Below, piece by piece: positions 47,410 through 48,608 of a stretch of DNA of 64,000 bases. The position numbers were made by a program, and so were the translations under genes. The DNA comes from Parvularia atlantis (lineage: Eukaryota). The notes beneath the pieces were generated by a model that worked only from the letters and a program-made list of their open reading frames with translations, was not told the origin of the DNA and made no database searches. Numbering within the stretch: the stretch's first letter is position 1; the number at the start of each line of letters is the position of its first letter. The DNA lies in NCBI GenBank assembly GCA_943704415.1, contig CALSCO010001328.1:1-64000 (forward strand). Direction: 5' to 3'.

Positions 47410-48608
47410 ATGACCTCGGCAAGGCTCAGACGGCCTCTACGTGATGGTCGCGATGGCGCAGCCGCCGTGATCGCTCCCATCGGTAGGCTCGCCGCAGCTG
47501 GTGCCGCAGCGGCCGCCGTCAGCTCAGCCGTGAACGGCAACAAGCCCGAGGCCATTTTCAAGGACGCTGTCCTGGGCGCGGCCACCGGTGGCCTCATCAA
47601 CGTCACCGGCACTGCATTTCCCGGCGTCGTCGAGAACACGTTGGGCCACGCGGCCGTCGGCGCGGGCGTGGCTGCGGTCAAGGGCGGCGACGTCGTGCAG
47701 GGCGCCGTGGCGGGGGCCGCAGGCTCCATCGGCCCGGGTGGCACGAACTGCCGGCATCTGTGCCCGAGTAGGTGCAGGTCATCGCTGCGGCAGCCGCGTC
47801 GTTGGGCGCGGCGGCTGCGGCAGCGGGCGGCAACATCGCAGATGCTGTGATCACGGGCGCGCTCATCGGCGGGCTGAACCACAACCTGCACAAGTTGCTG
47901 CCTGACGTCGCGAACCCGCCGACCGGCAAGCTCTCGCGCAAGTACGAGACGGGCACCGAAACCGGCGACGCAGGCGTCATCTCCTCGGGCAAGGGTGACC
48001 ATGGCGGCAAATCGTACGGCAGCTACCAACTCTCCTAGAAGAACAAGCAAATCGAGGCCTTCCTCAGCTTCGTCTCGGCTCAGTCCGAGTACCAGCACAT
48101 CGCGGCGCAGCTTGGCAAGAACAAGCCCTACTCGGACGAGTTTCACGCGAGCTGGAAGCAGGCGGCGAAGAACGATCGGCAGCTGTTCAGCAAGGCTCAG
48201 CACGACTTCATTGTCAAGACGATGTACAAGCCAGCACTCGAGTAGATCACCGCGGCCACCCGCCAGCTGCCCGCGCCTCAGGCTGCCAGTGTGGACCTGA
48301 ACAAGGCGTCGCAGACTCTGCATGAGGTCCTCTTCTCACTGGTCGTTCAGCACGGCTCGACTGGAGCGACCAACACCGTCAAGCAGGCTGCTGCAGCTGC
48401 TGGCGTGTCGGCTACCGAGCGCCAGCTCATCGACCGTACCTACGCCGAGCGCTCCCGGCATGACGACACCGGCAAGCTTGTCTACTTCAAGTCATCTCCC
48501 GACCTTCAGCATGGCCTTGAGCAGCGCTTCAAGACTGAGCGTGAGCGGGCGCTGTTTGAGTATGACCGGGAGACCGGTGGCCGCTGCACGGACAGCAAGT
48601 CGCCGTGA
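47410..48608 (+). pseudogene. Intronless bacterial-type polymorphic toxin tip: Gly/Ala pre-toxin region + VgrG3-C-like muramidase, disrupted
   Basis: One frame from 47742 to 48608 reads ...GGNIADAVITGALIGGLNHNLH...GKLSRKYETG...GVISSGKGDHGGKSYGSYQLS*...F...WKQAA...FSKAQHDFI...Y.P..*...VLFSLVVQHG...LIDRTYAER...YFKSS...RFKTERERAL. TAG occurs at 47769, 48036 and 48243, there is a frameshift near 47730-47745, and the 5' boundary is uncertain. Confidence 0.82.

Follow-up and report, generated by a model that had tools for sequence, protein, structure and literature searches.

The window analysed here is a stretch of 64,000 nt (64 kb) from Parvularia atlantis, in which the host DNA has a GC content of about 70% and short introns (median, 55 nt). 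Our home-made spliced gene finder listed 21 gene models in the window, with 5-73 introns apiece, and the genes named from a reading of these models include PCGF, COMMD, TONSL, and a DH-PH RhoGEF, a set suggestive of a single-celled organism related to animals and fungi. With an NHE8 exon as query, animal proteins were matched at 50-57%, and none of the 31 matches was close. The widest interval without a gene model between predicted genes is 47365-48686, and it holds a gene of bacterial type (47410-48608, + strand), referred to below as the insert. Upstream lies the 3' part of a gene for a myotubularin-related phosphatase (46010-47364, +; PF06602, E = 3.9e-20), which stops at a TGA located 45 nt before the ATG at 47410. 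Downstream, the terminal TGA of the insert (48606-48608, +) is separated by 78 nt from the ATG of an acyl-CoA dehydrogenase gene (48687-50608, +; PF02770 and PF00441). Six GT-AG introns of the former gene and three of the latter are spliced in sequencing run X2. The motif GTGCG, which marks intron donors and occurs 14-31 times per 2 kb across the window, is absent (0 copies) from 47410-48608, and no gained host-type introns were found in the foreign frame. Thus, the description in an earlier note of an intronless segment of about 1.2 kb between two intron-rich host genes is correct, and all the motifs that it quoted were located in the insert. The insert lacks convincing marks of mobile-element ends, be they terminal repeats or a target duplication.

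When the segment 47772-48608 was translated with TAG as X (278 residues), residues 52-257 (47925-48542, +, with X at two TAG codons) matched the VgrG3-like C-terminal lysozyme (muramidase-fold) family PF21277 with E = 5e-39 and 134.6 bits (cut-off, 27), over positions 2-183 of the 183 in the profile. The only sequence matches in the PDB were the two Vibrio cholerae VgrG3 chains, 4noo and 4nso (E about 1e-13). The AlphaFold model of the domain has a mean pLDDT of 80.9, with values below 50 at residues 7-14 and 18-29, the loop that bears the catalytic acids. A Foldseek search with this model returned 4noo/4nso first, followed by GH46 chitosanases and T4 lysozyme, and the predicted fold is therefore lysozyme-like. 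The translation check proposed in the earlier note thus yielded both the expected family and the expected fold, and its assignment to the VgrG3-type muramidases is borne out. A Glu at 47946-47948 (+; 99% conserved in 164 homologues) aligns with the catalytic Glu of VgrG3, which we take to be E827. An Asp at 47997-47999 (+; 98% conserved) aligns with VgrG3 D842, given the protein length used to place D842 on the PDB chain. The D842A variant of VgrG3 is listed as an inactivated effector in a passage of PMC11323562. By its sequence, the domain is a true member of PF21277 that retains both catalytic acids, as had been claimed.

A search of 1.84 billion representative sequences gave 2,670 matches at E ≤ 0.001, and the best 150 of them had identities of 45% or less. 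Two of the top 10 clusters carried a taxon, and both were myxobacteria. As this library carries no names, eukaryotic relatives are possible among the unlabelled matches. Relatives with taxon names were sought in viral, prokaryotic, and metagenome collections (alignment scans of 56, 41, and 25 of 64 parts); all of those found were prokaryotic or phage proteins with at most 45% identity, and the prokaryotic genome matches were headed by myxobacteria, Acidobacteriota, and Caulobacteraceae among the matches listed. The alignment scans of the three collections gave no close relative among the matches listed, nor did the query's own peptides find one in metagenome or viral contigs. In a quick-search tree of 134 rows, comprising viral loci L001-L030 and L055, genome loci L081-L160, 23 proteins, and the query (thus without the other loci of L031-L080 and all 80 metagenome loci), the query formed an end branch of 1.57 and joined no supported group. 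The tree with bacterial homologues that had been called for could thus be built, but it did not single out a donor. Since all the named relatives are prokaryotic or phage, horizontal transfer is likely, and on this sequence comparison the insert was likely acquired from a prokaryote or a phage.

The locus was compared among three sequencing runs, X1, X2, and X3, the last being an RNA library from lake water made in a separate study; next to none of the words of the locus were present in two others, X4 and X5. Run X1 shows that the insert is physically integrated in a eukaryotic chromosome: one contig of 14,586 nt spans 46400-49600 unbroken and with 0 substitutions, and on it the insert lies together with its two neighbouring genes, both of which show spliced introns in X2. 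The other X1 contigs had only matches of about 25-35 nt to the locus among the matches listed. In X2, the contig of the spliced dehydrogenase transcript extends to 48506, which places its end in the final 100 nt of the foreign frame, and about 47406-48505 is without cover, which is not evidence of silence for the uncovered part. In X3, pieces 48086-48236 and 48414-48663 match the foreign gene almost perfectly, and a piece at 48539-48663 spans the 3' junction; this library also contains one unspliced intron and may therefore include DNA. The earlier note had named unspanned junctions as the sign of a chimera, and here a single X1 contig spans both, while X2 and X3 cross the 3' one. Its central claim of a bacterial-type gene inside a eukaryotic genome is therefore upheld, and, with the named relatives, its claim of horizontal acquisition is likely correct.

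These junctions bear directly on the notion that bacterial contamination was mis-assembled into a eukaryotic contig. X1 may be the window's own source data and hence not independent, so the 5' junction is without clearly independent support, and some GC-rich bacteria fit the codon use of the insert better than the host does; however, the X1 contig over both junctions, the X2 and X3 pieces over the 3' junction, and three stop codons that would be unexpected in a live bacterial gene all speak against it. Contamination is extremely unlikely and is largely refuted.

None of the runs compared agrees fully with the window, and several alleles or assemblies therefore exist. Relative to the window and X1, both X2 and X3 lack 4 bases at 48619, and X1 is shorter than the window by 2 bases at 48873. 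One X3 contig (depth, 3.6 of 7.2) carries an A>G change at 48538, on the second base of the codon for a Glu that is 99% conserved; it may be an allele, editing, or an error. Because the X2 contig reaches 48506, the leader or promoter of the host dehydrogenase may lie in the insert, and such an element within 48506-48686 could explain the retention of the 3' part of the insert.

In the window, the frame of the foreign gene is broken at 47740-47741 (+), at a site with a 3-base direct repeat; slippage deletions carry direct repeats of this sort. The X1 contig has 13 extra bases behind 47740, which bring the front end and the enzyme into one frame of 404 codons closed by TGA, and the frameshift of the window copy is thus absent from X1. 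Three TAG codons interrupt this X1-length frame on the + strand. The first (47769-47771, codon 125) lies upstream of the enzyme domain, and the downstream open frame, said in the earlier note to begin at 47742, actually begins after it, at 47772. The second (48036-48038, codon 214) occupies a column where, of 164 homologues, 104 have Ser and 48 have Thr, and the third (48243-48245, codon 283) a variable column where 44 have Lys, 31 Arg, and 19 Asn. No set of well-scoring donor, branch point, and acceptor was found for an intron over the break or the TAG codons, and at 47740 an intron is unnecessary because the extra bases of X1 restore the frame.

The host does not read TAG as sense. There is no in-frame TAG in the 3,872 codons of recognisable host genes, and when TAG was allowed in the gene finder, an internal TAG appeared in one of the 21 listed models, as read-through of a terminal stop. 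The 18 predicted host stops consist of 11 TGA, 4 TAG, and 3 TAA. Among the four predicted TAG ends, only that of PCGF has outside support, which is weak (RAWUL, E = 0.084, ending 6 residues earlier), and a PDB check of this end gave unrelated matches only. Reassignment of TAG in the host was ruled out, as the gene finder put no TAG in conserved host genes. Because the host reads TAG as a stop, a full-length enzyme is not expected. Translation from the ATG at 47410 would end after 124 codons at the X1 length or after 146 in the window, and the 88-codon piece that bears the catalytic acids is without an ATG.

The front end consists of a Gly/Ala-rich N-terminal region with two hydrophobic repeat units (47410-47739, +), weakly DUF637-like, and, in translation, a third Gly/Ala unit with a linker (47772-47924, +). 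The three units noticed earlier are indeed present, but in the window the first two lie in a different frame from the third unit and the enzyme. The front end is likely a 5'-truncated piece, with a doubtful start at ATG 47410. By hydropathy only, no signal peptide is evident: the start is Arg-rich, with the first peak in hydrophobicity starting at residue 19. DUF637 is the one Pfam family that the front end touches, at E = 0.23 and 0.067 (11.7-13.4 bits against a cut-off of 26.6). In the Atlas comparison, DUF637 clusters rank first with 161 of 256 features shared and a score of 0.91; among shuffled proteins, 4-10% score as high. Searches of 7,986 candidate proteins 194-2,000 residues long, of 240 loci, of the proteins collected for this analysis, of plasmids, and of viral contigs gave no sequence relative of the front end. 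CdiA and Rhs proteins exceed 2,000 residues and thus lie outside the sizes searched. We regard a pre-toxin origin of the front end as plausible, with a chance somewhat above even. The earlier note had seen here a pre-toxin region and delivery stalk; the resemblance to DUF637 speaks weakly for it, but it remains below threshold and has no sequence relative beside it.

Scans against Pfam, NCBIfam, and PHROGs found no delivery module (filamentous haemagglutinin repeats, Rhs core, VgrG, or PAAR), and the upstream host gene ends just 45 nt before the frame. The absence of an Rhs core and of an immunity gene agrees with the earlier note; the gap of 78 nt before the ATG of the dehydrogenase gene leaves too little space for an immunity gene behind the insert. 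With neither a delivery module nor an immunity gene, membership of the locus in a polymorphic toxin system is not demonstrated. We also weighed another ancestry, in which the enzyme descends from an autolysin of the LysM or peptidoglycan-binding type or from the tail lysin of a phage; the front end would then be an unrelated stretch, either a membrane anchor or a segment of low complexity. Among the 83 of the 150 best relatives that were scanned, 17 carry LysM, 5 PG_binding_1, and 1 a phage tail domain, whereas a secretion-delivery domain occurs in just 4 (WXG100 in 2, PAAR in 1, and a weak RHS in 1) and DUF637, PT-VENN, and VgrG in none; the front end, moreover, is without a sequence relative. 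On the other side, PF21277 does tip PAAR, WXG100, and weak RHS proteins among these 83, DUF637 is the sole family touched by the front end, the search for front-end relatives stopped below the sizes of CdiA and Rhs proteins, and all of the best 10 family-bearing Atlas matches share the DUF637 family or clan, as do one-third of shuffled proteins. This ancestry is a serious contender, at somewhat less than an even chance.

We consider that the insert is probably, by a modest preference, a pseudogene of a transferred peptidoglycan hydrolase in which the three TAG codons arose by decay. In this account, an intron-free gene piece for a VgrG3-type peptidoglycan lysozyme with a Gly/Ala front end came to rest between two spliced host genes; it likely stems from a GC-rich bacterium and likely arrived as a truncated terminal part of some larger exported toxin or wall hydrolase. 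The ancestral protein would have cleaved the glycan backbone of the bacterial wall through its Glu/Asp pair, an activity that could have served a bacteria-eating host. The TAG codons would stem from nonsense mutation in the host or would predate the transfer, the donor having carried them in an orphan cassette, and the host, with the standard code, would stop before the enzyme, so that the Gly/Ala part alone would be made.

That all three stops are TAG is unremarkable as evidence for recoding, because 77 of the 100 one-base routes to a stop in this gene give TAG and three TAG out of three have P = 0.46. A single base separates the second TAG from a common Ser codon, and at its column 152 of 164 homologues have Ser or Thr, whereas Gln occurs in 1, Leu in 3, and Trp in none. 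Decay is favoured because of these routes, this Ser/Thr column, the frameshift of the window, and the Glu-codon change in X3. Plain decay is opposed, however, by several observations. The three stops imply about 100 (about 104) neutral substitutions; nevertheless, all 21 columns conserved at 95% and all 28 at 90% are intact (P = 0.05-0.09, inflated in that the homologues were picked by likeness to the query), and of 42 columns at 85% four are changed, none by a one-step change. Rare A/T-ending codon classes are not in excess (11 seen against 9.7 expected). By the codon statistics, the likelihood ratio that favours TAG as a sense codon against plain decay is 14-31, and a fraction of at most 0.057 of the 300 simulated decays per setting resemble the gene; both figures start from the host codon baseline and use query-like homologues, which flatters the reading of TAG as sense. 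The absence of the frameshift in X1 and the gene pieces in X3 likewise count against plain decay.

Since 28 of 28 conserved columns are intact despite three stops, there is room for a donor in which UAG encodes an amino acid, either a recoded eukaryote or its virus or phage, in which the gene was intact and from which it arrived dead in the present host. The undamaged columns and natural-looking codon statistics would fit such a donor, as would the single X1-length frame of 404 codons closed by TGA, a codon style unlike that of the host, a use of GAA unlike that of most of the best-fitting bacteria, and the long tree branch without sampled kin. On the other hand, recoded donors are rare a priori, whereas transferred DNA commonly decays by nonsense; viral and metagenome contigs held no close relative among the matches listed; and Gln (1 and 7 of 164) and Leu (3 and 4 of 164) are scarce at the two domain sites, where Ser fits best. 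To our knowledge, there is no genetic code in which UAG means Ser. Nuclear codes with UAG as Gln or Leu do exist, as part of the text of PMC5304391 states. We judge this origin unlikely.

The codon use itself sets the insert apart from the host. Its GC3 is 0.80 against 0.90-0.97 in host genes, and its codon adaptation index 0.50 against 0.66-0.82. Under the host model, its codons have a mean log-likelihood of -1.03, compared with -0.58 to -0.80 in 18 host genes. Its codon use is fitted better by 39 of 206 prokaryotic or viral loci than by the host, so the GC-rich third positions do not show the long residence that was once read from them. GAA use is 0.06, against 0.19-0.72 in 11 of the 12 best-fitting bacterial loci shown. 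Decay by CpG methylation, which was raised by an excess of T before G, was rejected because T is equally high before C (13/35); T before A is low in the insert (3/57), and the same pattern is found in GC-rich bacteria.

If the host nonetheless had domesticated the gene as a functional antibacterial enzyme, the full-length protein would have to be made through condition-specific stop read-through or RNA editing. The catalytic and structural residues are intact, and the X3 RNA library holds 48086-48236 and 48414-48663 almost unaltered, as this would require; a potentially costly protein would then be made only when needed. However, three stops would have to be passed in succession, the front end shows no signal peptide, and the window copy is also frameshifted. 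A-to-I editing would give Trp, which occurs in 0 of 164 homologues at either domain site, and a hidden intron is opposed by the lack of surplus residues at the second TAG and of a well-scoring host-type intron near any TAG. We consider such a use very improbable. The comparison with domesticated Tae/Dae amidases drawn earlier is not supported, given the three in-frame stops, the host's use of TAG as a stop, the lack of a signal peptide, and the uncovered middle in X2. The wider proposal that a toxin tip with its stalk came through a UAG-sense carrier, the TAG codons being the fingerprint of its code, or else that a read-through lysozyme is turned by the host against prey, seems to us rather doubtful.

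Among known systems, the lysozyme domain of V. cholerae VgrG3 (PF21277; 4NOO, 4NSO) shares with the insert its family, its fold (TM about 0.64), and its Glu/Asp pair, with 24-27% identity in the structural alignment. In contrast to VgrG3, the insert has no VgrG spike, peptidoglycan-binding domain, or TsiV3-like immunity gene, lies in a eukaryote, and contains three in-frame stops. The highest identities found (42-45%) were with myxobacterial LysM/PG-binding PF21277 hydrolases (Cystobacter, WP_071895888.1), although their accessory domains differ and the tree does not place the query among them. Orphan CdiA-CT/Rhs-CT cassettes occur in bacterial polymorphic toxin loci and are likewise 5'-truncated pieces in which a toxin tip comes after a Gly/Ala region of pre-toxin-like character; the insert differs in having no immunity gene, VENN/Rhs cleavage motif, or nearby parent locus, and its pre-toxin match is below threshold. 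The Dae proteins, derived from the T6SS Tae effectors, are also wall-degrading competition enzymes of bacteria in eukaryotic genomes. One of them, tick Dae2, is described in a passage of 10.1101/2020.04.10.036376 as an amidase that has a predicted signal peptide and is expressed, secreted, and active, whereas the insert encodes a predicted lysozyme-fold glycosidase, is without a signal peptide, and is broken. The NlpC/P60 peptidoglycan endopeptidases of Trichomonas vaginalis, which part of 10.1101/320382 reports to be laterally acquired, active, induced by bacteria, and multi-copy, are likewise acquired peptidoglycan hydrolases of a protist, but of another enzyme class.

The transfer of bacterial wall hydrolases to eukaryotes is thus known already, and what is new here is the enzyme family, PF21277; we found no published report of a eukaryotic PF21277 or VgrG3-like gene in titles and abstract openings, subscription journals and supplements being outside that search. 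If the insert is the pseudogene that we favour, it would capture a domestication that failed or was given up, a finding of modest weight, and an intact orthologue in relatives, if found, would be a new antibacterial enzyme of bacterivorous protists. If the TAG codons are former sense codons, they point to a recoded donor not yet sampled, and the transfer would be traceable across a genetic-code barrier. Either a recoded carrier or read-through, if true, would make this the first reported eukaryotic PF21277 effector within the literature searched.

Several other observations were made along the way. No tRNA genes were found in the window. Its genome is very compact, with a median predicted exon of 72 nt and intergenic gaps often below 100 nt; host intron donors are GTGCG in 91 of 122 cases, and the branch point is CTGAC-like. 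Further intervals without a gene model, of 570-800 nt, lie at 13730-14531, 36134-36772, and 60328-60898. A predicted HECT-domain ubiquitin ligase at 20164-36133 (- strand) is very large, with about 2,900 codons and more than 100 predicted introns, and no N-terminal family in it was recognised by eye. An NHE8-like exchanger has an exon of 784 nt at 17571-18353 (- strand), more than twice as long as the next longest host exon. In two low-GC viral contigs, L055 (3001-3546) and L078 (3001-3546), the PF21277 domain contains two and one in-frame TGA codons, respectively, of which one falls at a column that is usually Trp and one at the Tyr preceding the catalytic Glu; these may represent a recoded phage or a decayed gene.
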